In this document: in pieces, positions 2,720 through 52,095 of the stretch
Layout of the letters: each line of letters opens with the position of its first letter
Position numbering within the stretch: position 1 is the first letter of the stretch
Origin: Escherichia coli
Lineage (GTDB): Bacteria > Pseudomonadota > Gammaproteobacteria > Enterobacterales > Enterobacteriaceae
Assembly: GCF_050320075.1 (NCBI RefSeq)
Contig: NZ_CP190018.1
DNA length: 64,000 nucleotides
Strand: one strand, 5' to 3'
Program-made: the position numbers and the translations under genes
Notes under the pieces: generated by a model
Told to the model about the DNA's origin: nothing
The model's input: the letters and a program-made list of their open reading frames with translations, nothing else
The model's database searches: none

Positions 2720-5017
2720 ATGAAATGGCTATGTTCAGTAGGAGTCGCGGTGAGTCTGGCCCTGCAGCCAGCACTGGCGGATGATTTATTCGGCAACCAT
2801 CCATTAACGCCCGAAGCGCGGGATGCGTTCGTCACCGAACTGCTTAAGAAAATGACAGTTGATGAGAAAATTGGTCAGCTGCGCTTAATCAGCGTCGGCC
2901 CGGATAACCCGAAAGAGGCGATCCGCGAGATGATCAAAGACGGTCAGGTTGGGGCGATTTTCAACACCGTAACCCGTCAGGATATCCGCGCCATGCAGGA
3001 TCAGGTGATGGAATTAAGCCGCCTGAAAATTCCTCTTTTCTTTGCTTACGACGTGCTGCACGGTCAGCGCACGGTGTTCCCGATTAGCCTCGGTCTGGCC
3101 TCGTCTTTTAACCTCGATGCAGTGAAAACGGTCGGACGTGTCTCTGCTTATGAAGCGGCAGATGATGGCCTGAATATGACCTGGGCACCGATGGTCGATG
3201 TCTCGCGCGATCCGCGCTGGGGACGTGCTTCCGAAGGTTTTGGCGAAGATACGTATCTCACCTCAACAATGGGTAAAACCATGGTGGAAGCGATGCAGGG
3301 TAAAAGCCCGGCAGATCGCTACTCGGTGATGACCAGCGTCAAACACTTTGCCGCATACGGCGCGGTAGAAGGCGGTAAAGAGTACAACACCGTCGATATG
3401 AGTCCGCAGCGCCTGTTTAATGATTATATGCCGCCGTACAAAGCGGGGCTGGACGCAGGCAGCGGCGCGGTGATGGTGGCGCTGAACTCGCTGAACGGCA
3501 CGCCAGCCACCTCCGATTCCTGGCTGCTGAAAGATGTTCTGCGCGACCAGTGGGGCTTTAAAGGCATCACCGTTTCCGATCACGGTGCAATCAAAGAGCT
3601 GATTAAACATGGCACGGCGACAGACCCGGAAGATGCGGTGCGCGTGGCGCTGAAATCCGGAATCAACATGAGCATGAGCGACGAGTACTACTCGAAGTAT
3701 CTGCCTGGGTTGATTAAATCCGGCAAAGTGACGATGGCAGAGCTGGACGATGCTGCCCGCCATGTACTGAACGTTAAATATGATATGGGGTTGTTTAACG
3801 ACCCATACAGCCATTTGGGGCCGAAAGAGTCTGACCCGGTGGATACCAATGCCGAAAGCCGCCTGCACCGTAAAGAAGCGCGTGAAGTGGCGCGCGAAAG
3901 CTTGGTGTTGCTGAAAAACCGTCTCGAAACGTTACCGCTGAAAAAATCGGCCACCATTGCGGTGGTTGGGCCACTGGCGGACAGTAAACGTGACGTGATG
4001 GGCAGCTGGTCCGCAGCCGGTGTTGCCGATCAATCCGTGACCGTACTGACCGGGATTAAAAATGCCGTCGGTGAAAACGGTAAAGTGCTGTATGCCAAAG
4101 GGGCGAACGTTACCAGTGACAAAGGCATTATCGATTTCCTGAATCAGTATGAAGAAGCGGTCAAAGTCGATCCGCGTTCGCCGCAAGAGATGATTGATGA
4201 AGCGGTGCAGACGGCGAAACAATCTGATGTGGTGGTGGCTGTAGTCGGTGAAGCACAGGGGATGGCGCACGAAGCCTCCAGCCGGACCGATATCACTATT
4301 CCGCAAAGCCAACGTGACTTGATTGCGGCGCTGAAAGCCACCGGTAAACCGCTGGTGCTGGTGCTGATGAACGGGCGTCCGCTGGCGCTGGTGAAAGAAG
4401 ATCAGCAGGCTGATGCGATTCTGGAAACCTGGTTTGCGGGGACTGAAGGCGGTAATGCAATTGCCGATGTATTGTTTGGCGATTACAACCCGTCCGGCAA
4501 GCTGCCAATGTCCTTCCCGCGTTCTGTCGGGCAGATCCCGGTGTACTACAGCCATCTGAATACCGGTCGCCCGTATAATGCCGACAAGCCGAACAAATAC
4601 ACTTCGCGTTATTTTGATGAAGCTAACGGGGCGTTGTATCCGTTCGGCTATGGGCTGAGCTACACCACTTTCACCGTCTCTGATGTGAAACTTTCTGCGC
4701 CGACCATGAAGCGTGACGGCAAAGTGACTGCCAGCGTGCAGGTGACGAACACCGGTAAGCGCGAGGGTGCCACGGTAGTGCAGATGTACTTGCAGGATGT
4801 GACGGCTTCCATGAGTCGCCCTGTGAAACAGCTGAAAGGCTTTGAGAAAATCACCCTGAAACCGGGCGAAACTCAGACTGTCAGCTTCCCGATCGATATT
4901 GAGGCGCTGAAGTTCTGGAATCAACAGATGAAATATGACGCCGAGCCTGGCAAGTTCAATGTCTTTATCGGCACTGATTCCGCACGCGTTAAGAAAGGCG
5001 AGTTTGAGTTGCTGTAA
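2720..5017 (+). CDS. bglX: Periplasmic beta-glucosidase (GH3)
   Basis: ORF 2648..5017. Start moved to MKWLCSVGVAVSLALQPALA signal peptide, giving 765 aa. GH3 family sequence. Confidence 0.9.
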   Translation: MKWLCSVGVAVSLALQPALADDLFGNHPLTPEARDAFVTELLKKMTVDEKIGQLRLISVGPDNPKEAIREMIKDGQVGAIFNTVTRQDIRAMQDQVMELSRLKIPLFFAYDVLHGQRTVFPISLGLASSFNLDAVKTVGRVSAYEAADDGLNMTWAPMVDVSRDPRWGRASEGFGEDTYLTSTMGKTMVEAMQGKSPADRYSVMTSVKHFAAYGAVEGGKEYNTVDMSPQRLFNDYMPPYKAGLDAGSGAVMVALNSLNGTPATSDSWLLKDVLRDQWGFKGITVSDHGAIKELIKHGTATDPEDAVRVALKSGINMSMSDEYYSKYLPGLIKSGKVTMAELDDAARHVLNVKYDMGLFNDPYSHLGPKESDPVDTNAESRLHRKEAREVARESLVLLKNRLETLPLKKSATIAVVGPLADSKRDVMGSWSAAGVADQSVTVLTGIKNAVGENGKVLYAKGANVTSDKGIIDFLNQYEEAVKVDPRSPQEMIDEAVQTAKQSDVVVAVVGEAQGMAHEASSRTDITIPQSQRDLIAALKATGKPLVLVLMNGRPLALVKEDQQADAILETWFAGTEGGNAIADVLFGDYNPSGKLPMSFPRSVGQIPVYYSHLNTGRPYNADKPNKYTSRYFDEANGALYPFGYGLSYTTFTVSDVKLSAPTMKRDGKVTASVQVTNTGKREGATVVQMYLQDVTASMSRPVKQLKGFEKITLKPGETQTVSFPIDIEALKFWNQQMKYDAEPGKFNVFIGTDSARVKKGEFELL

Positions 5018-21060: not shown

Positions 21061-24000
21061 TTAATGGAAAATGACGTCGGGTGCGCTTAACGCTTCACTC
21101 AAATCAAACACATCAAGTTCGGCAAAAGTGACAGATTTATTGTCACGGTATACATGAAGAGAACGGAAGCTCATTAGCGCTTTGCTATCAACATTGTAGT
21201 GGTTAAAACCGGATGAAAACTTAAGGACCAGCCGGTACTCGCCCAGGTCATAGACAAATGCATTCTCATAGCCTGACTCCCAGCCTTTGTATCGCATTCC
21301 CATAAGTTGCCCAACGGTAGCAGATTTACCTTCCCAGCGATTCAAACTATTACTGGCTGACTCGTCAGGCGTGAGCAGTACTGTGCGCCGTGCCAATTGG
21401 CGAAAAGGCGGCATAATTTCGTAATCGGCAAAAAGCTGTGCAAACTCACTGCGCATTTCTGCTGCCATTTCTAACGGGTGGGCAATGCCAATCAGAGCAT
21501 CGGCAGGCAGGTCAATTGGCTCATCTTGCTCATTGCAGAACTCCCCCTCAGCGGCCACACGAAAGGCGTTGAGTAAACGACGCGGTTCATTTGCCGGATA
21601 AACACCCCATATTAATCGCTGAGTAACCAGACGGGTAAAGGGATGATTAACAAACAGAGAATGAAAATCTGCCAGCGACCAGCGTCGGGTGGTGCGCAGG
21701 GCAGTTTCAAGACGCGGGAGCAGGTTTTTGCTCACCTGAGTGGCATCTTTTTTTAGCCCTTTTAGTCGGGCCAGTGCCTCGGGTGCTTTCAGTTGATCGT
21801 CATCGGCGCGCAACCGGGGAACGCTTTTCTGGCGAACGTTTTGCTGATCAAAGATAACCGGGTTAAGGTTTTCATCGAAGCGAACGGTAAATTGCCGTGG
21901 ACCAAAATCAAAAATCAACGCCTGCGGATCATCAAGACCCAGTGTTGGGACTAATCTGTCCGCTAACTGTTCCTGGCTTAGCCCTCGATTTTCTGCGACC
22001 ACCTGAAGAAATTCCGCCGCGTTATCACGTAAGGGGCGGGATTTCGCCCGTTGCGATATATGATGCAGCTGTATCAGTGCCATATCATTATTCATCTGAG
22101 TAAGTATGTTCAGGCCGCTGACGGCACGGGCAGATTTGCCTTCCTGTGGCCAGGCAAGGATCTGTGTCGTCAGATCCCGTGCCGTGCTTTCGTCGCCAAA
22201 GAGACTTAACGCCAGAAATGCCCAGTTGTCTTTTGCGGGAGCACCAGCTTGTTGCCACGCGGTGAAAAGATCCCAGGCAAAAGCTGCCAGCGTTTGCGGC
22301 TGGCAGAAAGTTTTCAGTTGTTCCAGTCCGCTATAAAAACGTCCGCCCTGGGTAAAGCGCAGCATTTCGCCGATAATTTCCAGTGCGTCATCGGTAACAG
22401 GCTGATTATTCGTGATAAGGCGCGGCCTGGACCACATTGCCGGCTGCCAGAAATCAGGGGCTTTTGGAATGCGTGTCGGGTAAATCTCTATTGGACTCTG
22501 TTTAAGTAAATGCTCCAGGGCAGGCCATACATCTGTACGCTGCCAGCGGTTTGCCGCGGTTTGCAGCAATTCACCATGTCCCTGTTCGTAAAGTAAACGT
22601 AGGGCAAGTAATGCAGCTTCGCTATTATCGCTGGATTTGGTGAAGACAAGAGGGATAAGTGCAGTAGCCGTATGTTCCGGCCATTGTAAAATCCACTGGC
22701 GAGCCAGATCACGCTGCGCCGCGAAACGTCGCCAGACGCGGGCAACGGGCAGGGCCAGTTCTGTTGCGCCAAAATTTAAAATTAACGGAAATGTTTCTTT
22801 TGGACGATATGAAAAAGCCAACAGCAGACCTGGTAGAGCATCCAATCCGAAGATACTGAGAAAATAGTCCTCACCCGCGAACAGATGCTTTTTCTCATTG
22901 ATACGTAGCCAGAAAGTCAAAGCTATCTCACGCGGCAACTGTGCCAATAAATACAGGTTCCAGATACTCTTTTCCCGACGATAGCGTGAGTAGCTGTCAT
23001 TTTCCCATATGTTAATTAACACTTCTACGTGACCGCTGCGAAGCGCCTGTTCTGCTAATTGTGCTTCCGGGGAGTTCCAGCCATTCAGGATCTCTTCAAC
23101 CCGCCCCTGGTAGTAATGCCACTGAACAATGAGTGAATTGCGTGCAGCATCCAGTTTTCCGGGGAGTATATAATTCAGAAACAGCCATACATCATCTCCA
23201 AAACCCAGCTCCTGTAGTACAACTCGTCCACTTTTATGTTCCATGCGTTCCGCAAGAGATTCCGTGCTGAAATAACGGGCAGACTCAGTGGCGGCAAGCC
23301 TCTCTCGTTCGCCTGGTTGCCAGTAAACTTGCGGCGTTAATTCGAACGGTGCCAAATCAAGACGTGGAACTGTCATTTTTTTCTTACTACGCCACGGTGG
23401 TGAAACGAGGATTTCAGGCATTTGGCTGTTATCGGTGCTATCAATAACCGTTTTAGGCGGTGCCGATAAATAACTATTCAGCACTGACCGGGCTTGAGTA
23501 CTTAACCACGGCATCACCTCTTCTGCCAGTTGTGGCTGCGATGCCATCAGCGTTTGTAACAGCGTACGCCAGTATTCATCACGTGCTTTTTGCTGTGCAG
23601 GCAGCTTTTTGTCTTCGATGATTGGATAACCAGGGCGCGTAGGTGGTTCTTTTAGCGCCAGCAGTTCTGCCAGTGCGGCAAGCGTCGCATGGGGGAAATT
23701 TTTACTGTATTTAGCTACACGTTGCAGGCTGGGTTTGTTTTTATCAGCAACTAACAGCAGGGTGCGGATGACCTGCGGATGGTTAATTTGTACCAGCAGA
23801 CTGCCGCAATCTTCTTTATGGGCATACATTGCCAGGCGTGGAACGGCTGCCAGTCCTTGTTCGCGCAAAAGGGCAGCGCAGGCCGCGTAGCCGAAGTGGT
23901 TTTCATGCGACATGTAGCTGGCTTCCCGATCGCTAAATATATCCTGGCTCCAGTAGCGTTCGAGTTTTCTCACCGCTCTGGGGTCAATAGCAACAACTTT

Positions 24001-24693
24001 TAACCACTCCTTAGAATGAAAATGAGTCCACGGGCATTCAAGGCTTACCAACTCATTGGCGATTTCTGGTTTTTCCGGGAGGATCAGAGCAATAAAAGGG
24101 CGGCGAACTTTGGTTATTCCTGGCAGTGCGGCAATGAGTTTGTCGGCGCAACGCTGCCAGCTGCTTTCCTCTGCCAGAGAGAGATGCTTACGCAGTCGGA
24201 GATCGAATTCGTTATAGGTTTCTGATCGATAACCATAGCCATAATCCTCGTTCTGATACTGCAATGTCACTAGCAGAGGATCACTTTCATAACATCGTGT
24301 AATAAACTGGCGTGCAATCACCACCTCAGTCGCATATTCCAGTCCCTCTTGTTGGACGATTTCGTCGAGCAACTGTTGGCTATCATTTTGCGCGATACAG
24401 GCTAGCGCCGCCATTGTCCGGGCCGGAACTGAGGGTTTGTGTTCGCCAATCAAGTTGATGGCCTGCGTAATGGCCGACTGCCACTCCAGTGAAAAATTTT
24501 CATAACGCCAGACAATGTTTTTTTTCTTCTCAGCTTTTTGTAGCAATTCATCACCCAGTGTCTGGATGAGGCTTTCAGTGATAACAGGCACCGGTTCGCC
24601 CGGCCAACTGCGATGGCTGAGCGGCGTTTTGCCTTTTTTATATTTCAGTTCCACTTGGGCGTTATCCGCCAGCCACGGTAATTCCTTGTCCAT
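21061..24693 (-). CDS. yehI: Large uncharacterised protein YehI (DUF4132-type, no WGR domain)
   Basis: 1210 aa. Shares conserved blocks with the two upstream paralogs (HLSLAEES.WQ.C..K, LIWGVY, C-terminal region) but lacks their N-terminal WGR-like domain. Confidence 0.85.
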   Translation of the reverse strand: MDKELPWLADNAQVELKYKKGKTPLSHRSWPGEPVPVITESLIQTLGDELLQKAEKKKNIVWRYENFSLEWQSAITQAINLIGEHKPSVPARTMAALACIAQNDSQQLLDEIVQQEGLEYATEVVIARQFITRCYESDPLLVTLQYQNEDYGYGYRSETYNEFDLRLRKHLSLAEESSWQRCADKLIAALPGITKVRRPFIALILPEKPEIANELVSLECPWTHFHSKEWLKVVAIDPRAVRKLERYWSQDIFSDREASYMSHENHFGYAACAALLREQGLAAVPRLAMYAHKEDCGSLLVQINHPQVIRTLLLVADKNKPSLQRVAKYSKNFPHATLAALAELLALKEPPTRPGYPIIEDKKLPAQQKARDEYWRTLLQTLMASQPQLAEEVMPWLSTQARSVLNSYLSAPPKTVIDSTDNSQMPEILVSPPWRSKKKMTVPRLDLAPFELTPQVYWQPGERERLAATESARYFSTESLAERMEHKSGRVVLQELGFGDDVWLFLNYILPGKLDAARNSLIVQWHYYQGRVEEILNGWNSPEAQLAEQALRSGHVEVLINIWENDSYSRYRREKSIWNLYLLAQLPREIALTFWLRINEKKHLFAGEDYFLSIFGLDALPGLLLAFSYRPKETFPLILNFGATELALPVARVWRRFAAQRDLARQWILQWPEHTATALIPLVFTKSSDNSEAALLALRLLYEQGHGELLQTAANRWQRTDVWPALEHLLKQSPIEIYPTRIPKAPDFWQPAMWSRPRLITNNQPVTDDALEIIGEMLRFTQGGRFYSGLEQLKTFCQPQTLAAFAWDLFTAWQQAGAPAKDNWAFLALSLFGDESTARDLTTQILAWPQEGKSARAVSGLNILTQMNNDMALIQLHHISQRAKSRPLRDNAAEFLQVVAENRGLSQEQLADRLVPTLGLDDPQALIFDFGPRQFTVRFDENLNPVIFDQQNVRQKSVPRLRADDDQLKAPEALARLKGLKKDATQVSKNLLPRLETALRTTRRWSLADFHSLFVNHPFTRLVTQRLIWGVYPANEPRRLLNAFRVAAEGEFCNEQDEPIDLPADALIGIAHPLEMAAEMRSEFAQLFADYEIMPPFRQLARRTVLLTPDESASNSLNRWEGKSATVGQLMGMRYKGWESGYENAFVYDLGEYRLVLKFSSGFNHYNVDSKALMSFRSLHVYRDNKSVTFAELDVFDLSEALSAPDVIFH

Positions 24694-27700: not shown

Positions 27701-28497
27701 TAATCAGGTGAAATGCCAGACGACAGGAAAACAATATTATTGTTGACATAATCCCATTCAATAGATATTTGTTGAAGATGTATTATTACATCAGTAGCAT
27801 ATTCCAGACCGCCTTCCTGAATAATCTGATCCATAACATCCGCACGCTCTTTATATCTCGTGCAGTGCAGTTCAAGTGCCGCGAGTACAGCCATTACCGG
27901 TGATGGTAATTTTGTCGTTTTCGGGCTGTTAATCAGATCGATCGCCTGAGCGATGAAGTTTTGCCACTCTAAAGTACAGGCGCTGAAGTCAAATGTAGCT
28001 GTTTTGTTATCCCGTTGCGACACGCCACAGGCTAAGCGACGTAACTGGGTTAATTTATCTACAGGTGTAACAGGATCTCCGGGAAAGCGGCGATGGCTTA
28101 AGGTGGTGGGTACGACTTCAAGCGGAAAAACGACAGCAATATCTTTTGCCAGCCACGGTAAAATAACGTCTGTATTTTTGTCAGCCACGTAGAATTCTGG
28201 TGTAACTGAGGGCTGTTCCTGAATGATGGTAGAAAAGTCAGATAATTCGAGAGATTTCGTTACCGTTCGAGTATGTTTCGATGTAGCATTCTCCGCATGT
28301 TCCACATACCCCTTTTTCGTTTTCTCCGCAATCAGCTTGAGTTCCGCTTTTTCCGCCGCCGCAGCATCTGCAAAGCTTTTTACCTGACTTTGCCCGTTGG
28401 TGCCGACTTTGCCCCAACTGATATTCAGTTCGTTTCCCTGCTGCTCCACCGCCCAGAATTTATGTGATTTTTCGTCCTGATAAATATAGGTTTTCAT
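24703..28497 (-). CDS. molR: WGR-domain / DUF4132 protein (MolR family), intact 1264 aa
   Basis: N-terminus MKTYIYQDEKSHKFWAVEQQGNELNISWGKVGT is WGR-like. Length equals the K-12 molR pseudogene product as I recall it. 9-nt gap to yehI. Confidence 0.8.
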   Translation of the reverse strand: MKTYIYQDEKSHKFWAVEQQGNELNISWGKVGTNGQSQVKSFADAAAAEKAELKLIAEKTKKGYVEHAENATSKHTRTVTKSLELSDFSTIIQEQPSVTPEFYVADKNTDVILPWLAKDIAVVFPLEVVPTTLSHRRFPGDPVTPVDKLTQLRRLACGVSQRDNKTATFDFSACTLEWQNFIAQAIDLINSPKTTKLPSPVMAVLAALELHCTRYKERADVMDQIIQEGGLEYATDVIIHLQQISIEWDYVNNNIVFLSSGISPDYLQQYSSFELRLRKHLSLAEESLWQKCAQKLIAAVPHIPEWRQPLIALLLPEKPEIAHEIAQRLLGQKKLPSLEWLKIVATDEHILASLEKYHEPYAIFDDYYCGAIWSATVLQEQGVAALPRFAPYVASDYCADVLRHINHPFALTLLIRVAGHTKRCHDRMTKACAAFPHAALAALAELLVQKEENSWRIMLMTMLISQPTLAEQVIPWLSTPAVAVLKSCQQQLTQPSNHASADLLPAIVVSPPWLSKKKKSPIPVLDLAPLGIEPISYLTEEISNQLLAKYIWYSKHITVSHEESTANLLARMGFQRRIAGTYIKAPEAVVEAWLNEDYSTLISEFKVFHSPTGHYWHLGILTTLPLEKAVRAWNALTLSPHTDTEYAMLHFGLKGLPGLVNSLARYPQEALPITNYFAASELAPAVARAFNKLKTLRQDARTWLLKYPEHAITGLLSAALGKAGEAQDNARAALRMLTENGHQPLLQEIARRYNQPEVTDAVNAMLALDPLDNHPTKIPTLPAFYQPSIWTRPVLKANAQSLPDSALQHLGEMLRFHQEEALYPGLLQVKDACTADSLAEFAWDLFTAWQTAGAPSKESWAFTALGVLGNDDTARKLTPLIRAWPGESQHKRATVGLDILAAISSDIALMQLNGIAQKLKFKALQERAKEKIADIAESRELTVAELEDRLAPALGLDDNGSLLLDFGPRQFTVSFDETLKPFVRDVSGSRLKDLPKPNKSDDESQANDAVNRYKLLKKDARTVAAQQVARLESAMCLRRRWSPENFQLFLVEHPLVRHLTRRLIWGVYSAENQLQACFRVAEDNSYSTADDDLFTLQEGDISVGIPHVLEISPTDAVAFGQLFADYELLPPFRQLERNSYALTEAERNASELTRWAGRKCPSGRVMGLANKGWIKGEPQDGGWIGWMIKPLGRWSLIMEIDEGFAVGMSPADLSAEQVLSKLWLWEGKAESYGWGSNSTQEAQFSVLDDITASELINDIEALFE

Positions 28498-28509
28498 TGC
28501 AAAGTCCTT

Positions 28510-31500
28510 TTAATCAAAAAGTGATTCGATGTCGTTAATGAGTTCGCTGGCGGTGATGGCATCAAGCGCGGAGAACGTGAGCGAGGGCTGTGTACTGTAG
28601 CGTTCCCCTGGTGAAGTGATTTTTACGCTTTCAACAGGTAGCAGGTCGCTATACCCCGTTTCGCCATAAATTAATGAAAAATGTTCTGTTTCAAGTTCGA
28701 GAGCGCCATAAGGGGTAGATTTGCGCATCGCATAGACGCTGCCGCTTTCTTCCAGACGTTGCCAGCCTCGACGTTCCAGCCCGACAATGCGCCCGGCCTG
28801 GCAAAGACGTCCTTGCCAGCGTATCAATTCATGGGTATCACGTTCATTATCAGTAAGGTGGTAATAACCACGATCGAGTTGGCGAAAGGGAGGAAGCTTT
28901 TCGTAATCAGCATAAATTTGCCCAAATGCAGTGGCGGATTCAGGAGATATTTCCAGCACATGCGGTATACCGATGTTTCCTGCTGGCAGCGTGAATAACT
29001 CATCCTGCGCATCGCTGTAAGTGCTGTCTTCTGCGACCCGGAAGCAGGCGATCAGCGTGTTTTCCTCAGTATATACCCCCCATAACACCCGTCGGGTTAA
29101 GTGACGTACCAGCGGATGCTCCACCAGAAACAGGCGGAACTGCTCTGCCGTCCAGCGTCTGCGCTGGCACATATCCTGCTCCAGACGATCAATCTGCTGG
29201 CTGGCAATGGCGTGCACATCTTTCTTCAATTGTTTGAAGAGGTTAACGGAGTCAGTTGCCAGTGTTTGATCATCGCTCTGATTTGGTTTGGGTAAATCTT
29301 TCAGGACTTTGCCGTTTGCATCGTGCACTACAGGTTTTAAGGTTTCGTCAAAACCAACGGTGAATTGACGTGGGCCGAAATCCAGTATCAGCGAGCCACT
29401 GTTATCAAGCCCTAAATCTGGAGCCAGGCGGTCTTCCAGTTCAGCCATAGTCAGCCCACGGTTTTCAGCAACTATGTTGATTTTCTCGCGGGCATGTTCC
29501 TGTAATGCTTTGAATTTAATTTTTCGCGCGATGCCATTAAGCAGCATTAGCGCAACATCGCTGCCAATATCAGCTAATACATCCAGCCCGTAAACCGCGC
29601 GTTTATGCTGGGATTCACCCGGCCAGGCACGGATAAGCGGGGTTAATTTACGTGCGGTGTCGTCATTGCCTAAAATCCCAAGCGAAGTAAATGCCCAGTT
29701 TTCTTTTGCGGGTGCGCCAGCTTCTGTCCATGCCGTGTAGAGATCCCAGCCAAAGTCAGCCAGTGATTCGTGGGTGAAGGTCTCTTTGATGGTCGCCAGC
29801 CCAGCGTAGGAGGTAATGTCGCGTGGAAAGCTCAACATTGTGCCCAGGTGGCGCATAGCGTCATCTGGCAGAGGCAGGTTGTTACTTTTAAGCCGTGGTC
29901 TGCGCCATAAGGTGAACTGATAAAAGCCGGGCAGTGGGGCGATTTTAGCGGGATATTCTTCCAGCGGATCGCTATCGAACAATGTTGCCAGCGCAGCTAA
30001 AACATCAGGTTGGTTGTATCTCCGGCCGATTTCTTCAATCGTTTCTCGCTGGTTTAATTTCACTAGCAGGCGGAATGCCTGGCGGGCATATTCCCGATTT
30101 TGGCACGGTTTGCCCAGCGCCAAAGGCAGTAGCCCGGCGGCGGCATGGCGCGGGTTATTTGCCAGCCAATTAATGGCATCCTTGTAAGCCATTTTTTTCT
30201 GTAACCGCTGCGCCATTGGTAAGGCTAGTTCACTGGCCCCAATAAAGAGGGTGAATATCCACAGTCGTTGATGATCTCGTTGCAAGCAGGTCATAAACGC
30301 AGGAATGGCCGTACTACCAAAAACTGCCAGAATCTCTTTCTCACCTGAATATCGCTCCTCAATGATTATTTGGTTGAGAAATGAAATCGCCTGTTGTCCC
30401 GGTAAGTAACAAAGCGCAGATAGATTCCAGCTTTTGTTGGCATTGTTGTGATATTTCGCAAACTCAGCTTTTAGTGCTGGAAAATCAAAGCGCAACAAGG
30501 CATCAACAGCGCTTTGCGGTATATATTTTTTTTCATGTAAGTCATCTTCGCAATGCAGCCATTCATTAAAACCTAATTGCCAAAGGATTTGTTGTTCTGG
30601 TGTAAAAGGAATGAAAGATGTCTCCCAGCTTTCTTTTTCAATTAGTGGCAGGTCGGTAAATAAGGTTTGCTGTGATGACTGATATTGCGCGATTTCACTG
30701 AATCTGGATATGTCAGTATGACTGATTAACTCTGTAATTCCTGGCGTGATGTCAGTGACTGCAGGGATGGGAAGCACCGGTAAATCAAATACGGGTATTA
30801 CATTCGTTTTCTTATTTATTACCCACGGTGGAGCGACAAACAGCTCCGGCAACATATCCGCAGTGGCGTATTCACATTCTTCAGCGACTAACTGAGTACG
30901 ACATTCAGATAAGATGCCTGCCGCTTTAGCATTAACCCAGGGAATGACGTCAGTGACTAAATCTGGCGTGGCGGTAATCAGTTTGACAAGCGCTTTACGC
31001 CACTGTGCATCTTCATGTATTGCCAGTAAAGTTGCATAAGCGGCAAGAGCCGCAGCGGGATGTTTTTGACAGGCTTTGCTTAAGTATTCCAGGTGCTTTT
31101 TCTTGCCAATTACACCGAGGATCAGAATTTGAATCGCATCCGGGTGATTCGTTTTCCATAGCCATTTGACAAGATCTTCAGTCTCGCTGATGCGCTCGAA
31201 GAGATAAGTGGGATTGTCAGAATGCTCTTCCGTAAACTCAAGAAGTATCCGGCTTACACCGCGCACCCCATTATTTGCCAGCAACATTGCCAGATAAGCG
31301 CGAAAATCATGATACAACGGTGGGAAGTCGTATTTTTCTGCTGTAGTCAGAGCGGCGTCATCGGTTACCACCAGTCTTAACCAGGTCATCGCCGGAACGT
31401 TTTGATCTGCATAACGTAGCGCCATAGCATTGGCAATATCCGGGCGTTCAGGGAGCAGTAACGCCGCAAAAGGTTGCCGTGCTGGGGATAGCGAGGGAAT

Positions 31501-32307
31501 AGCAGCGAGAACTTTATCTACACAGCGTTGCCACTCATCTTCTGAAGCGAGTGAAAGATGATGACATAGACGTTGATGCCAGTTCGGTAGTGATTCTGCT
31601 TTGAGATCAGGGGGAATAATGGTGGTGACGTCGGCTTTTACTGGTTTATATTTGAGTTGAAGAGCGAGAAGGGCGATTTCAACGGTAGTTTCCAGACCAC
31701 AGCGAATGACTAAGTCATCGACCAGTTCATCTGTAGAGTAAGAGTTCCATAAATTCCAGAGCAATGCCGCATCAGATTGTATACTTCCTGTTTGTTGATT
31801 ATTCAGAATTCGCCTTTGTAACTCGGCAAACGCCAGCTGCCAGTTTTCAGGATAAGAGCGGTAATTATTGTCGGGGTCATATGCCCTGGTGTTATTCGCG
31901 ATGCGCTTCCATATTTGGCCATCTTTGTACAGATAATTGATCTCTCTGGGGCGAGAGCGATGAGGAAAAGCAAATCGATTAATATCGCCAGTTACCGGAA
32001 TGACTGCATCATCAGCCACCCATGGGCGTTTGTTTTTACTCTCAGGGGAGGTTTCAACTTCAGGAGTGGCTTTGGTGATGGGGGGGATATGCACGTTTGC
32101 TAAAGCATTTTCCACATAGCCTTTTTTCGTTTTCTCTGCGATCAGCTTAAGCTCCGCTTTTGCCGCTGCCGCAGCATCCGCAAAACTTTTTACCTGGTTT
32201 TGCCCTTTGGTGCCAACTTTTCCCCAACAGATATGCAACTCGTTTCCCTGTTGCTCCACCGCCCAGAATTTATGTGATTTTTCGTCCTGAAAGATAAAGT
32301 GCCTCAT
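28510..32307 (-). CDS. Second WGR-domain / DUF4132 paralog (MolR-like), 1265 aa
   Basis: N-terminus MRHFIFQDEKSHKFWAVEQQGNELHICWGKVGT. Same architecture as molR, diverged in the middle. 12-nt gap to molR. I do not recall a second copy in K-12. Confidence 0.8.
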   Translation of the reverse strand: MRHFIFQDEKSHKFWAVEQQGNELHICWGKVGTKGQNQVKSFADAAAAAKAELKLIAEKTKKGYVENALANVHIPPITKATPEVETSPESKNKRPWVADDAVIPVTGDINRFAFPHRSRPREINYLYKDGQIWKRIANNTRAYDPDNNYRSYPENWQLAFAELQRRILNNQQTGSIQSDAALLWNLWNSYSTDELVDDLVIRCGLETTVEIALLALQLKYKPVKADVTTIIPPDLKAESLPNWHQRLCHHLSLASEDEWQRCVDKVLAAIPSLSPARQPFAALLLPERPDIANAMALRYADQNVPAMTWLRLVVTDDAALTTAEKYDFPPLYHDFRAYLAMLLANNGVRGVSRILLEFTEEHSDNPTYLFERISETEDLVKWLWKTNHPDAIQILILGVIGKKKHLEYLSKACQKHPAAALAAYATLLAIHEDAQWRKALVKLITATPDLVTDVIPWVNAKAAGILSECRTQLVAEECEYATADMLPELFVAPPWVINKKTNVIPVFDLPVLPIPAVTDITPGITELISHTDISRFSEIAQYQSSQQTLFTDLPLIEKESWETSFIPFTPEQQILWQLGFNEWLHCEDDLHEKKYIPQSAVDALLRFDFPALKAEFAKYHNNANKSWNLSALCYLPGQQAISFLNQIIIEERYSGEKEILAVFGSTAIPAFMTCLQRDHQRLWIFTLFIGASELALPMAQRLQKKMAYKDAINWLANNPRHAAAGLLPLALGKPCQNREYARQAFRLLVKLNQRETIEEIGRRYNQPDVLAALATLFDSDPLEEYPAKIAPLPGFYQFTLWRRPRLKSNNLPLPDDAMRHLGTMLSFPRDITSYAGLATIKETFTHESLADFGWDLYTAWTEAGAPAKENWAFTSLGILGNDDTARKLTPLIRAWPGESQHKRAVYGLDVLADIGSDVALMLLNGIARKIKFKALQEHAREKINIVAENRGLTMAELEDRLAPDLGLDNSGSLILDFGPRQFTVGFDETLKPVVHDANGKVLKDLPKPNQSDDQTLATDSVNLFKQLKKDVHAIASQQIDRLEQDMCQRRRWTAEQFRLFLVEHPLVRHLTRRVLWGVYTEENTLIACFRVAEDSTYSDAQDELFTLPAGNIGIPHVLEISPESATAFGQIYADYEKLPPFRQLDRGYYHLTDNERDTHELIRWQGRLCQAGRIVGLERRGWQRLEESGSVYAMRKSTPYGALELETEHFSLIYGETGYSDLLPVESVKITSPGERYSTQPSLTFSALDAITASELINDIESLFD

Positions 32308-32402
32308 TCTGCATCCCTGTAATTTTATCCAGTTGAATGCTGATGCTACCAGTATTTATGCGGGTTAGAGAGAGACAAAATCGCAAGAAAACAACTTTAG
32401 GA

Positions 32403-32437
32403 ATTTATAAAGAAAAGGCGCTGTCGATACAGCGCCT
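32403..32437 (-). terminator. Intrinsic terminator of metG
   Basis: Hairpin ggcgctgt-cgat-acagcgcc followed by a U-rich tract on the minus strand, 10-45 nt after the metG stop. Confidence 0.6.
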
Positions 32438-32447
32438 TGAAAGGAGA

Positions 32448-34481
32448 TTATTTCACCTGATGACCCGGTTTAGCACCGGCATCCGGGCTTAGCAGGAAAA
32501 TATCTTTCCCGCCAGGACCGGCAGCCATCACCATGCCTTCGGAGATACCGAAGCGCATTTTACGTGGTGCCAGGTTAGCCACCATAATGGTGTGACGACC
32601 AATCAGTGCCTGCGGATCCGGGTAAGCAGAACGAATGCCGGAGAAGACATTGCGTTTTTCACCGCCGAGATCCAGCGTCAGGCGCAGCAGTTTGTCGGAA
32701 CCTTCAACAAACTCTGCGTTTTCAATCAGTGCCACGCGCAGGTCAACTTTGGCGAAGTCATCAAAGGTGATAGTTTCCTGGATTGGATCGTCAGCCAGCG
32801 GGCCAGTTACCGGCGCGGCAGCGGCTTTTACTTCTTCTTTAGATGCTTCCACCAGTGCTTCAACCTGCTTCATATCGATGCGGTTATACAGCGCCTTGAA
32901 CGGATTCACTTTATGGCCCAACAGCGGTTGCTGGATACCATGCCAGGTCAGTTCTGTATTGAGGAATGCTTCTGCACGCTCGGTCAGTTTCGGCAGTACC
33001 GGCTTCAGGTAAGTCATCAGCACGCGGAACAGGTTGATGCCCATCGAGCAAATTGCCTGCAGGTCGGCATCGCGGCCTTCCTGTTTCGCCACCACCCACG
33101 GAGCCTGTTCATCGACATAGCGGTTAGCCAGGTCAGCCAGCGCCATAATTTCGCGTACTGCTTTACCAAATTCGCGGCTTTCCCACGCTTCACCAATCAC
33201 TTCAGCGGCATCCGTGAAGGTTTTGTACAACTGCGGGTCAGCCAGTTCGCTTGCCAGCACGCCGTCAAAACGCTTGTTGATAAAGCCAGCGTTACGGGAT
33301 GCCAGGTTAACCACTTTATTCACGATATCGGCATTCACACGCTGAACGAAATCTTCCAGGTTGAGATCGATATCATCAATGCGCGAAGAGAGTTTCGCAG
33401 TGTAGTAGTAACGCAGGCTGTCAGCATCAAAATGATTCAGCCAGGTACTGGCTTTAATAAAGGTGCCGCGAGACTTGGACATCTTCGCGCCGTTCACCGT
33501 CACATAGCCATGAACAAACAGGTTAGTCGGCTTGCGGAAGTTGCTGCCTTCCAGCATGGCAGGCCAGAACAGGCTGTGGAAGTAAACGATATCTTTACCG
33601 ATGAAGTGGTACAGCTCGGCGGTGGAATCTTTCTTCCAGTATTCATCGAAGCTGGTGGTGTTGCCGCGTTTGTCGCACAGATTCTTGAAGGAACCCATGT
33701 AGCCAATCGGTGCGTCCAGCCAGACGTAGAAATATTTGCCCGGCGCGTTCGGAATTTCAAAACCGAAGTAAGGGGCGTCGCGGGAGATATCCCACTGTTG
33801 CAGGCCGGATTCAAACCACTCCTGCATTTTGTTTGCCACCTGCTCCTGCAACGCACCGCTGCGGGTCCATGCCTGCAACATTTCGCTGAAAGAGGGCAGA
33901 TCAAAGAAGAAGTGTTCAGAATCACGCATTACCGGGGTAGCGCCAGAAACCACCGATTTCGGCTCGATCAGTTCAGTCGGGCTGTAGGTCGCACCGCAGA
34001 CTTCGCAGTTATCGCCGTATTGATCCGGGGATTTACATTTCGGGCAGGTGCCTTTTACAAAACGGTCCGGCAGGAACATGCCTTTTTCCGGATCGTAAAG
34101 CTGAGAGATGGTGCGGTTTTTAATAAAACCGTTTTCTTTCAGGCGAGAGTAGATAAGTTCTGACAACTGGCGGTTCTCTTCGCTGTGCGTCGAGTGATAG
34201 TTGTCATAGCTGATGTTAAAGCCTGCGAAATCAGTCTGATGCTCCTGACTCATTTCGCCAATCATCTGCTCCGGGGTGATACCGAGCTGCTGAGCTTTCA
34301 GCATGATCGGTGTGCCGTGGGCATCGTCGGCGCAGATGAAGTTGACCTCGTGGCCGCGCATTCGCTGGTAACGGACCCAGACATCAGCCTGGATGTGCTC
34401 CAGCATATGGCCGAGGTGGATTGAGCCGTTAGCGTACGGCAGTGCGCACGTCACCAGAATTTTCTTCGCGACTTGAGTCAT
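32448..34481 (-). CDS. metG: Methionyl-tRNA synthetase
   Basis: ORF 32448..34490. Start at [25 protein letters not shown] gives 677 aa. Class I aaRS HIGH motif and KMSKS present. Confidence 0.95.
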
Positions 34482-34612
34482 AGTAGGCATTACTTCTTAA
34501 TAGTGAAAAGGGGTTAGATAGTACCAAATGGAAAAATGTTAAGTAAGTACTTCTCTATATTCTTCAGGTAAACTATCAGCTGATGGTTTATCTATACAAA
34601 AAAGGAGTCGGG

Positions 34613-35722
34613 ATGAACGAACAATCCCAGGCCAAATCACCAGAAGCCTTGCGCGCAATGGTCGCCGGGACACTGGCCAATTTTCAGCACCCAACCCTGA
34701 AGCATAACCTCACCACGCTGAAAGCGTTGCACCATGTCGCCTGGATGGATGACACGTTGCATGTGGAACTGGTTATGCCATTCGTCTGGCATAGCGCGTT
34801 CGAAGAGTTAAAAGAGCAATGTAGCGCCGAACTGCTGCGCATCACCGGGGCGAAAGCTATCGACTGGAAACTGTCGCACAATATCGCCACCTTAAAACGC
34901 GTGAAGAATCAGCCGGGAATTAACGGCGTGAAGAACATCATTGCGGTCAGCTCCGGTAAAGGCGGCGTGGGTAAATCCTCCACGGCGGTAAACCTGGCGC
35001 TGGCACTGGCGGCGGAAGGGGCGAAAGTCGGCATTCTGGACGCCGATATCTATGGCCCATCAATACCCACCATGCTGGGTGCAGAAAATCAGCGTCCAAC
35101 TTCGCCGGACGGTACCCATATGGCACCGATTATGTCTCATGGACTGGCAACCAATTCAATTGGTTATCTGGTCACTGACGACAATGCGATGGTGTGGCGT
35201 GGTCCGATGGCGAGCAAGGCGTTAATGCAGATGTTGCAGGAAACCTTGTGGCCGGATCTCGACTATCTGGTGCTTGATATGCCGCCAGGCACCGGTGACA
35301 TTCAATTGACACTGGCACAAAACATACCAGTAACTGGCGCGGTAGTGGTCACCACTCCGCAGGACATTGCGTTGATCGATGCGAAAAAAGGCATTGTGAT
35401 GTTCGAGAAAGTCGAGGTTCCGGTGCTCGGTATTGTCGAGAACATGAGTGTGCATATTTGCAGTAACTGTGGTCACCATGAACCGATTTTCGGTACCGGT
35501 GGTGCAGAGAAACTGGCCGAGAAATATCACACGCAGTTGCTGGGGCAGATGCCGTTACACATCTCCTTACGTGAAGATCTCGATAAAGGCACGCCAACGG
35601 TTATCAGCCGTCCGGAGAGCGAATTTACCGCTATCTACCGCCAGCTGGCTGACCGCGTTGCAGCCCAGCTTTATTGGCAGGGAGAAGTCATTCCTGGCGA
35701 GATTTCCTTCCGCGCGGTCTAA
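34613..35722 (+). CDS. mrp: Fe-S cluster carrier ATPase Mrp/ApbC
   Basis: Start MNEQSQ preceded by AAGGAG. 369 aa. P-loop GKGGVGKS. Confidence 0.9.
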   Translation: MNEQSQAKSPEALRAMVAGTLANFQHPTLKHNLTTLKALHHVAWMDDTLHVELVMPFVWHSAFEELKEQCSAELLRITGAKAIDWKLSHNIATLKRVKNQPGINGVKNIIAVSSGKGGVGKSSTAVNLALALAAEGAKVGILDADIYGPSIPTMLGAENQRPTSPDGTHMAPIMSHGLATNSIGYLVTDDNAMVWRGPMASKALMQMLQETLWPDLDYLVLDMPPGTGDIQLTLAQNIPVTGAVVVTTPQDIALIDAKKGIVMFEKVEVPVLGIVENMSVHICSNCGHHEPIFGTGGAEKLAEKYHTQLLGQMPLHISLREDLDKGTPTVISRPESEFTAIYRQLADRVAAQLYWQGEVIPGEISFRAV

Positions 35723-43261: not shown

Positions 43262-43359
43262 TTTATTAACGCGATTGTAAAACTGCGGTTTTTACTCGTT
43301 TACAACGCGTGCGCTGGACATTACCATCCTCCTCTGCGATTTATCATCGCAATCAAACG

Positions 43360-43483
43360 ACTCGGGGTGCCCTTCTGCGTGAAGGCTGAGAAATACCCGT
43401 ATCACCTGATCTGGATAATGCCAGCGTAGGGAAGTCACGGACCACCAGGTCATTGCTTCTTCACGTTATGGCAGGAGCAAACT
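43360..43483 (+). promoter_or_regulatory. TPP (thi-box) riboswitch in thiM leader
   Basis: ggggtgcccttctgcgtgaaggctgagaaatacccgtatcacctgatctggataatgccagcgtagggaagtc carries the conserved CUGAGA and thi-box elements. Ends at the thiM SD/start. Confidence 0.9.
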
Positions 43484-51389: not shown

Positions 51390-52095
51390 ACAGAAAACCC
51401 CCAGCTAGGCTGGGGGTTCCGGAAAGCTTTCAGCTTTGAGCCAGTTATTCAAACCCCTTTTGATTTGTTAAAACACCTTGCGGTCTGGCAACTGCAAGTG
51501 TCAAACAAGAAATCAAAAGGGGGTCCCAATGGGGGACGAAAAGAGCTTAGCGCACACCCGCTGGAACTGTAAATATCACATAGTTTTTGCGCCGAAATAC
51601 CGAAGACTGGCGTTTTACGGAGAGAAGCGTAGGGCGATAGGCAGTATTTTGAGAAAGCTGTGTGAGTGGAAAAGCGTACGGATTCTGGAAGCAGAGTGCC
51701 GCGCAGATCATATCCATATGCTTGTGGAAATCCCACCCAAAATGAGCGTATCCGGCTTTATGGGATATCTGAAAGGGAAAAGCAGTCTGATGCTTTACGA
51801 GCAGTTTGGGGATTTGAAATTCAAATACAGAAACAGGGAGTTCTGGTGCCGAGGGTACTATGTCGATACGGTGGGTAAGAACACGGCGAAGATACAGGAC
51901 TACATAAAGCACCAGCTTGAAGAGGATAAAATGGGGGAGCAGTTATCGATTCCATATCCGGGCAGCCCGTTTACGGGCCGTAAGTAACGAAGTTGAATGC
52001 AAATGTCAGATCGTATGCGCCTGTTAGGGCGCGGCTGGTAACAGAGCCTTACAGGCGCATTTGAAAAACCTCCGGCTATGCCGGAGGATATTTAT
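51390..52095 (+). mobile_element. IS200-family insertion sequence (boundaries approximate)
   Basis: Contains an IS200 TnpA gene. Left-end perfect hairpin aacccccagc-tag-gctgggggtt (51396-51418) and subterminal hairpins 52015-52060 and 52069-52090. About 0.7 kb, as expected for IS200. Confidence 0.75.
51529..51987 (+). CDS. tnpA: IS200 transposase TnpA (HUH/Y1 family)
   Basis: MGDEKSLAHTRWNCKYHIVFAPKYRR ... HIHMLVEIPPK (HuH motif), 152 aa. Near-identical to recalled Salmonella/E. coli IS200 TnpA. Confidence 0.9.
   Translation: MGDEKSLAHTRWNCKYHIVFAPKYRRLAFYGEKRRAIGSILRKLCEWKSVRILEAECRADHIHMLVEIPPKMSVSGFMGYLKGKSSLMLYEQFGDLKFKYRNREFWCRGYYVDTVGKNTAKIQDYIKHQLEEDKMGEQLSIPYPGSPFTGRK

Follow-up and report, generated by a model that had tools for sequence, protein, structure and literature searches.

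In Escherichia coli K-12 the fragment upstream of molR (yehH) is one of the ten BglJ-RcsB targets described by Salscheider, Jahn and Schnetz (2014, Nucleic Acids Res; PMC3950696). According to the text of that study, constitutive BglJ raised the expression of chromosomal lacZ fusions to the intergenic fragments 4- to 73-fold, provided that RcsB was present, and 5'-RACE of primary molR transcripts yielded a strong and specific product in the presence of BglJ and a "very weak" one in its absence. The same text places the centre of the BglJ-RcsB box 65-68 bp upstream of the molR start site, and reports that mutation of the box abolished activation, as did the insertion of 5 bp between the box and the core promoter, an insertion of 10 bp restoring 25%. 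In class I-type targets of BglJ-RcsB (ynbA, ynjI, ygiZ and sfsB) the centre of the box likewise lies 65-68 bp upstream, and the box acts in a phase-dependent manner and has its RcsB-like half-site facing the promoter. On the other hand, bgl, leuO, yidL and chiA are described there as H-NS-repressed, whereas molR mRNA was not raised in an hns stpA mutant, indicating that the molR promoter is not repressed by H-NS. All published promoter experiments were performed in K-12, which carries a disrupted hybrid gene at this place and not three intact paralogs.

The molR gene is also a member of the LexA regulon. The SOS review PMC6590174 enters it in Table 1 as LexA-regulated and having a "known SOS box", with reference to Fernandez de Henestrosa (2000) and Courcelle (2001), and the LexA-repressed SOS promoters of that table likewise have a 20-bp CTG-N10-CAG operator adjoining the core promoter. 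Classic SOS promoters need no activator, whereas the molR promoter discussed here adds an obligatory one, BglJ-RcsB. The regulation of this region is therefore already known, its SOS box since 2000 and the dissection of its BglJ-RcsB promoter since 2014.

We analyzed a 64,000-nucleotide stretch of the E. coli chromosome (the window), in which metG is followed, after a gap of 140 nt, by the first of three tandem paralogs carrying WGR and/or DUF4132 domains. All features of the gap are on the minus strand (Table 1). The equivalent gap of K-12 MG1655 (NC_000913.3 2196334-2196473) is also 140 nt long and has 4 differences from the window (97% identity), all of them outside the BglJ-RcsB core, the TGnTAGCAT element and the LexA box. 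Since the window is E. coli and its gap differs from that of K-12 at only these 4 positions, the K-12 experiments can be transferred to it. It is very probable that the gap is the metG-molR (yehF/yehH) region of E. coli, with a weak, BglJ-RcsB-dependent and LexA-gated promoter located after the metG terminator. In K-12 this promoter precedes a single disrupted hybrid (yehF plus yehH, formerly molR), while in the window it precedes an intact paralog of 1265 amino acids followed by a second intact WGR paralog.

Table 1. Features of the metG-WGR gap and of its surroundings (window coordinates)
Feature	Position	Strand	Remarks
metG (methionine-tRNA ligase) CDS	32448..34490	minus	stop codon TAA 32450-32448; from the ORF list and the RefSeq annotation of an identical E. 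coli locus and of K-12
metG-internal start sites 32549 and 32544, with -10-like TAAAAT (32562-32557)	32544..32562	minus	K-12 U00096.2 positions 2194254 and 2194259
metG intrinsic terminator	32405..32438	minus	stem 32438-32429 / 32424-32415, loop AUCG, T tract 32414-32405
BglJ-RcsB activator box, core AATTCCTA	32398..32405	minus	fits the published central wwTTCykA; abuts the terminator T tract; predicted placement
Core promoter, extended -10 TGgTAGCAT	32343..32351	minus	TG 32351-32350, hexamer 32348-32343; no recognisable -35; putative assignment
molR transcription start site, predicted	32333..32337	minus	5' UTR of about 27-30 nt
LexA box AACTGGATAAAATTACAGGG, CTG-N10-CAG	32315..32334	minus	predicted; spans the predicted start site, the leader and the Shine-Dalgarno region
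Shine-Dalgarno-like AGGGA (32318-32314) and start codon ATG (32307-32305) of paralog 1	32305..32318	minus	RefSeq start; conserved
WGR + DUF4132 paralog 1, 1265 aa	28510..32307	minus	ORF list, Pfam
WGR + DUF4132 paralog 2, 1264 aa	24703..28497	minus	12 nt after paralog 1; body of K-12 molR/yehH
yehI, 1210 aa, DUF4132 only	21061..24693	minus	9 nt after paralog 2
zorO toxin ORF MDTLTQKLTVLIAVLELLVALLRLIDLLK	20537-20626	plus	type I toxin-antitoxin, between yehK and yehL
OrzO-P antitoxin RNA	20291-20216	minus	Rfam, 101 bits

The terminator begins 9 nt past the metG TAA. Its stem has 10 bp, including 6 G-C pairs, with a 4-nt loop, and the T tract TTCTTTATAA lies directly 3' of it; in the RNA the U tract reads UUCUUUAU, or UUUUCUUUAU when the last two U residues of the stem are included. 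The structure thus shows what is expected of an intrinsic terminator, that is, a G+C-rich hairpin with a short loop and a U tract, just past a stop codon and conserved in relatives. It ranked within the best six hairpin-plus-T-tract sites of both strands of the 64-kb window, and its stem was intact in all 10 aligned Escherichia sequences, with nine pairs invariant. The uppermost stem position is a U-A pair in the window and a C-A mismatch in K-12, and the calculated hairpin energy was -16.3 kcal/mol for the window as against -14.9 kcal/mol for the K-12 allele. The Term-seq supplement of Adams 2021 (PMC7815308) holds no entry for metG or molR. An earlier note on this DNA had placed a terminator at 32403-32437, after metG, and the first WGR gene 96 nt further on; the hairpin and T tract found here (32438-32405) agree with that position to 1-2 nt, and the start codon lies 96-98 nt past the terminator end.

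Immediately after the terminator, the published central motif of BglJ-RcsB boxes occurs once in the gap, and we take this single match to be the probable activator box. Its core lies about 65-68 bp upstream of the start predicted from the -10 element, as in the published arrangement, and the K-12 sequence used for the molR-box mutagenesis is identical to the window in this core. The contact of the box with the T tract of the metG terminator distinguishes it from other BglJ-RcsB targets.

No -35/-10 pair for sigma-70 was found in the gap by a consensus scan. With a promoter matrix the best score in the gap was 8.4 bits, and 25% of random 161-nt windows from the genome and 70% of shuffled gap sequences also reached this value. 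The gap does contain TGgTAGCAT, that is, a TGn followed by a hexamer that keeps the A at position 2 and the T at position 6 of an extended -10; this is a resemblance in sequence and not in function, and the -10 is putative. The lack of a usable -35 at this element is as expected for an activator-dependent promoter. Two lines converge on the putative start site: it would lie 7-9 nt past the -10 hexamer, and its distance from the centre of the BglJ-RcsB core, which is upstream of it, would be 65-68 bp. A start at about 32334-32336 of the window would correspond to about 2196445-2196447 of K-12 NC_000913.3. The placement of these elements rests on the published text, on motifs and on conservation. 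Two bases past the -10, the window has an A where K-12 has a T.

Other promoter candidates were considered and set aside. The top candidate of the matrix scan, TTGTCT-16-AATACT, would start transcription about 57 bp from the BglJ-RcsB core and not at 65-68 bp. By eye, TAAAGTTG fits the -35 element of a sigma-28 promoter and its -10 does not, a possible sigma-54 site has the wrong GG-to-GC spacing, and no match to sigma-E or sigma-H motifs was seen in the gap. An in-vitro RpoE-holoenzyme SELEX-chip peak (8.6-fold) is assigned to the "metG > > yehI" spacer in PMC5493296, but its coordinate, 2196338, follows the U00096.2 numbering (checked against W3110), which puts it about 1.84 kb inside the molR pseudogene and not in the gap; in the window this is roughly the middle of paralog 2.

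The earlier note had seen no obvious strong promoter in the gap, and our consensus and matrix scans, which did not rise above chance, give the same picture. Its suggestion that a weak, condition-specific promoter in the gap would leave the genes quiet under standard conditions is supported by the K-12 data, in which, by the text of PMC3950696, lacZ expression depended on BglJ and the basal 5'-RACE signal was weak. The promoter-reporter fusion that it had proposed is already published for K-12 in the same source and was active only with BglJ-RcsB.

A matrix built on a set of 20 classical SOS boxes (training scores 12.3-26.7 bits, median 20.6) was used to score every 20-mer on both strands of the 64-kb window. 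The top 20-mer was AACTGGATAAAATTACAGGG, at 17.9 bits, the next best reaching 13.7 bits. With 13 of 20 matches to TACTG(TA)5CAGTA the box is of middling quality. It has the attributes of a LexA operator at 32334-32315, namely CTG-N10-CAG, an A/T-rich centre and a position near the core promoter, and CTG-N10-CAG was kept in 10 of 10 Escherichia sequences. Since the box covers the predicted start site, the short leader and AGGGA, bound LexA would block initiation.

The distribution of conserved positions was in agreement with these assignments. In Escherichia sp. E1V33, whose paralog 1 is 73% identical to that of E. coli over the first 300 residues, the sequence between the elements has diverged from that of E. 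coli at about half of its positions. The blocks kept are the terminator and the 28 nt that follow it, with the BglJ-RcsB core among them, then CTGnTAGCATC, and finally a stretch of 30 nt that reaches from the LexA box to the start codon. The same pattern of conserved blocks was seen in E. whittamii and in eight E. coli alleles, and the block that holds the BglJ-RcsB core is without differences in both E. whittamii and Escherichia sp. E1V33. Across the three Escherichia species the TG and the TAGCAT of TGnTAGCAT are invariant, the middle base being G, C or T. This footprint covers three Escherichia species, among which the conserved elements carry no informative variation, and the conservation of the islands can be taken as supporting evidence for the elements of the gap, not as proof.

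The same islands could also act in RNA, UAGCAUC and GGGAUGCA forming a leader hairpin that hides the ribosome-binding site instead of serving as DNA elements. GCAUC (32346-32342) can indeed pair with GAUGC (32315-32311), which shares bases with the 3' end of the Shine-Dalgarno region, and the fold of the single gap sequence was more stable than that of its shuffles (z = -2.6). However, the helix has only 5 bp, the covariation term of the alignment fold was unfavourable (+1.13), with no covariation support beyond the terminator, and the pairs outside the terminator break in divergent species. Moreover, with a start at about 32334-32336 the 5' arm would lie upstream of the start and outside the transcript made from the promoter, and the 3' island fits a LexA box far better than chance. 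Control at the RNA level is therefore very improbable.

The arrangement proposed for the gap is thus a metG terminator followed by a BglJ-RcsB site, an extended -10 without a -35, a LexA operator and the first WGR/DUF4132 gene. By itself the core promoter is nearly inactive, and it fires when BglJ-RcsB, bound in the right helical phase about 66 bp further upstream, recruits RNA polymerase. The bglJ gene is itself silenced by H-NS. LexA bound at +1 to +20 would add a second level of repression, to be relieved when DNA damage triggers LexA cleavage. The transcript would most likely cover the three paralogs; yehK and yehLMPQ have promoters of their own.

A different origin of the WGR transcripts is suggested by the K-12 start-site map of Kim et al. 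2012 (Table S1, mid-exponential phase), which assigns to molR_1 only two start sites, both inside metG, with 19 and 12 reads, and has none in the gap. These sites precede the WGR start codon by 242 and 237 nt and are upstream of the terminator, in sequence that is identical in the window. The WGR genes might then be transcribed mainly by read-through of the terminator, from the metG promoter or from the internal starts at 32549/32544, the gap promoter being minor. The reads at the internal sites are similar in number to those at the metG promoter (18), the mean in this map being 107.8 reads per start site, and the K-12-type hairpin is slightly weaker because of the C-A mismatch at the stem top. 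On the other hand, the assignment in this map was automatic, each start site being given to the next annotated gene, and the terminator has a canonical, conserved hairpin and T tract. That the gap holds a promoter of its own was demonstrated by reporter fusion, 5'-RACE and mutagenesis, as set out in the text of PMC3950696. The TAAAAT of the internal sites is a by-product of the codons CGT AAA ATG (Arg-Lys-Met); in Escherichia sp. E1V33 the synonymous codon CGC turns it into CAAAAT, with loss of the T of the -10. Since this -10 is made by codons and becomes CAAAAT in E1V33, we regard the internal sites as probably incidental, and we consider it unlikely that read-through is the main source of WGR expression; read-through is not needed to explain that expression, although some contribution from it is possible.

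With the activator-dependent gap promoter as the preferred reading, the lack of a gap start site in mid-exponential K-12 is as expected of a promoter that is silent in standard culture. The earlier note had predicted such silence and had named a mapped strong constitutive start in the gap as what would speak against it; the mid-exponential map shows no such start. The table of Yan 2018 has no start-site or 3'-end entry for the metG-molR gap.

Transcripts from the metG-internal sites should end mostly at the metG terminator. The predicted RNA from the 3' end of metG, of about 145 nt and ending at the terminator, folds with -57 kcal/mol (z = -3.5). A search of Rfam at permissive and gathering thresholds gave nothing relevant in 31500-35000 and no family for this RNA, which could be a 3'-end-derived RNA or noise. 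Small RNAs of the DapZ/MicL type, which come from 3' UTRs, start within a coding sequence, use the terminator of the mRNA and have a promoter conserved at synonymous sites. The metG RNA might belong to this type: its start sites are mapped and it is predicted to fold well, but the T of its -10 is lost at a synonymous site in E1V33.

The earlier note had further assumed that expression of the whole block may depend on the gap. This is not supported, and a single operon from the WGR genes to yehQ is contradicted by internal promoters and by a gene on the opposite strand. Table S5 of the EDL933 Cappable-seq study gives yehK a start at -188/-187 and yehL one at -194, in both K-12 and EDL933. Starts were also found within the paralogs of EDL933. 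The one at 2961563, inside paralog 1, was present in all eight Cappable-seq conditions; it corresponds to about 31276 (minus strand) of the window, about 1 kb inside the gene, where the upstream sequence has one base different. Another, at +21 of paralog 2, appeared in two conditions. Between yehK and yehL the zorO/orzO locus occupies 20216-20626 of the window, a locus that is absent from K-12 (Fozo et al. 2010). Ueda et al. 2013 use yehL/yehM to illustrate H-NS sites of the "intergenic" kind, and expression of the two genes rises only in hns/stpA mutants. The spacings of 12 and 9 nt between the three paralogs are compatible with one transcript, and the gap promoter most plausibly serves these three tightly packed genes only.

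In the window yehL (MoxR-type AAA ATPase) shows a change of reading frame near codon 119-120 (about 19745-19761), and yehM (DUF5682) has an in-frame stop at 18345-18347; the yehM of EDL933 also contains an internal stop. Both genes look disrupted in this strain.

The gap and its flanks were present in 5412 of 5426 complete E. coli genomes at 95-100% identity, always in the order metG to DUF4132/WGR gene. A search for divergent gap alleles within E. coli returned essentially a single allele. Close orthologs of paralog 1 were confined to Escherichia in the genome-collection scan, which had three usable Escherichia loci; other matches were distant WGR N-termini in other phyla. In paralog 1 the WGR domain covers residues 5-67 and DUF4132 residues 999-1182 (Pfam). 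Two of the three tandem paralogs have the WGR domain and YehI has DUF4132 alone.

Between strains, the paralog region is 90-93.5% identical, compared with about 97% for the stretch that holds metG. A comparison of window 28301-32307 with 4474-4671 of the K-12 locus sequence showed K-12 molR (yehF+yehH) to be a hybrid, similar to paralog 1 over its first ~197 nt (91%) and formed by paralog 2 over the remainder; apart from these ~197 nt, paralog 1 is absent from K-12. Since the 5' ends of paralogs 1 and 2 have in common a stretch of 195 nt with 88% identity, K-12 probably lost paralog 1 by recombination at this shared stretch. In E. coli GDSC2227PM an IS1 lies just past the first half of the gap, and the three paralogs and yehK are gone. 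In sublineage L1a of ST131 the blaCTX-M-15 transposon TnMB1860 is inserted in the "metG/DUF4132/yeh region" (PMC9334617). The array of paralogs is dispensable and forms a hotspot of mobile DNA. Assemblies labelled Collinsella sp. MAG (91% identity) and Xanthobacter autotrophicus (where the match is a 433-nt contig with 0.78x coverage) also contained fragments of the locus, probably as contamination.

A further alternative is that the array is a decaying piece of horizontally acquired DNA, with no working promoter in the gap of this strain. The paralog genes are pseudogenes in K-12 and EDL933, some lineages have them deleted or broken by IS1 or by a resistance transposon, and the window itself has disrupted yehL and yehM. 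In contrast, paralogs 1 and 2 and yehI are long intact reading frames in the window, the gap is kept in nearly all of the complete genomes counted above, and the regulatory elements are conserved in other Escherichia species. Promoter activity was measured for K-12, according to the text of PMC3950696. That the gap promoter is a silent remnant is thus extremely improbable.

Annotation of the promoter, the activator box and the SOS operator, coordinates included, can be carried over to strains with intact WGR/DUF4132 genes. In such strains the genes are predicted to be off in ordinary culture and to be induced when DNA is damaged or bglJ is derepressed, and this predicted inducibility offers a handle for finding the function of the large WGR/DUF4132 proteins. 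The WGR domain is known from nick-sensing poly(ADP-ribose) polymerases; to our knowledge, no repair role has been described for a product with WGR and DUF4132. A speculative reading, which we hold to be possible but doubtful, is that in strains with intact genes the LexA/BglJ-RcsB-gated promoter switches on a DNA-damage-responsive WGR array that works, together with the H-NS-silenced MoxR-ATPase/DUF5682/VWA/SWIM module (yehLMPQ), as a damage- or phage-sensing conflict system. PADLOC assigned none of the proteins of the block to a known defence family, and two genes of the module, yehL and yehM, are themselves disrupted in the window. If this reading were true, the regulation would be known and the function new.

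The Rfam scan of the whole window also located the Hfq-binding sRNA STnc490 at 51396-51519 (plus strand, 144 bits) and the thiM TPP riboswitch at 43353-43449 (plus strand, 72 bits).
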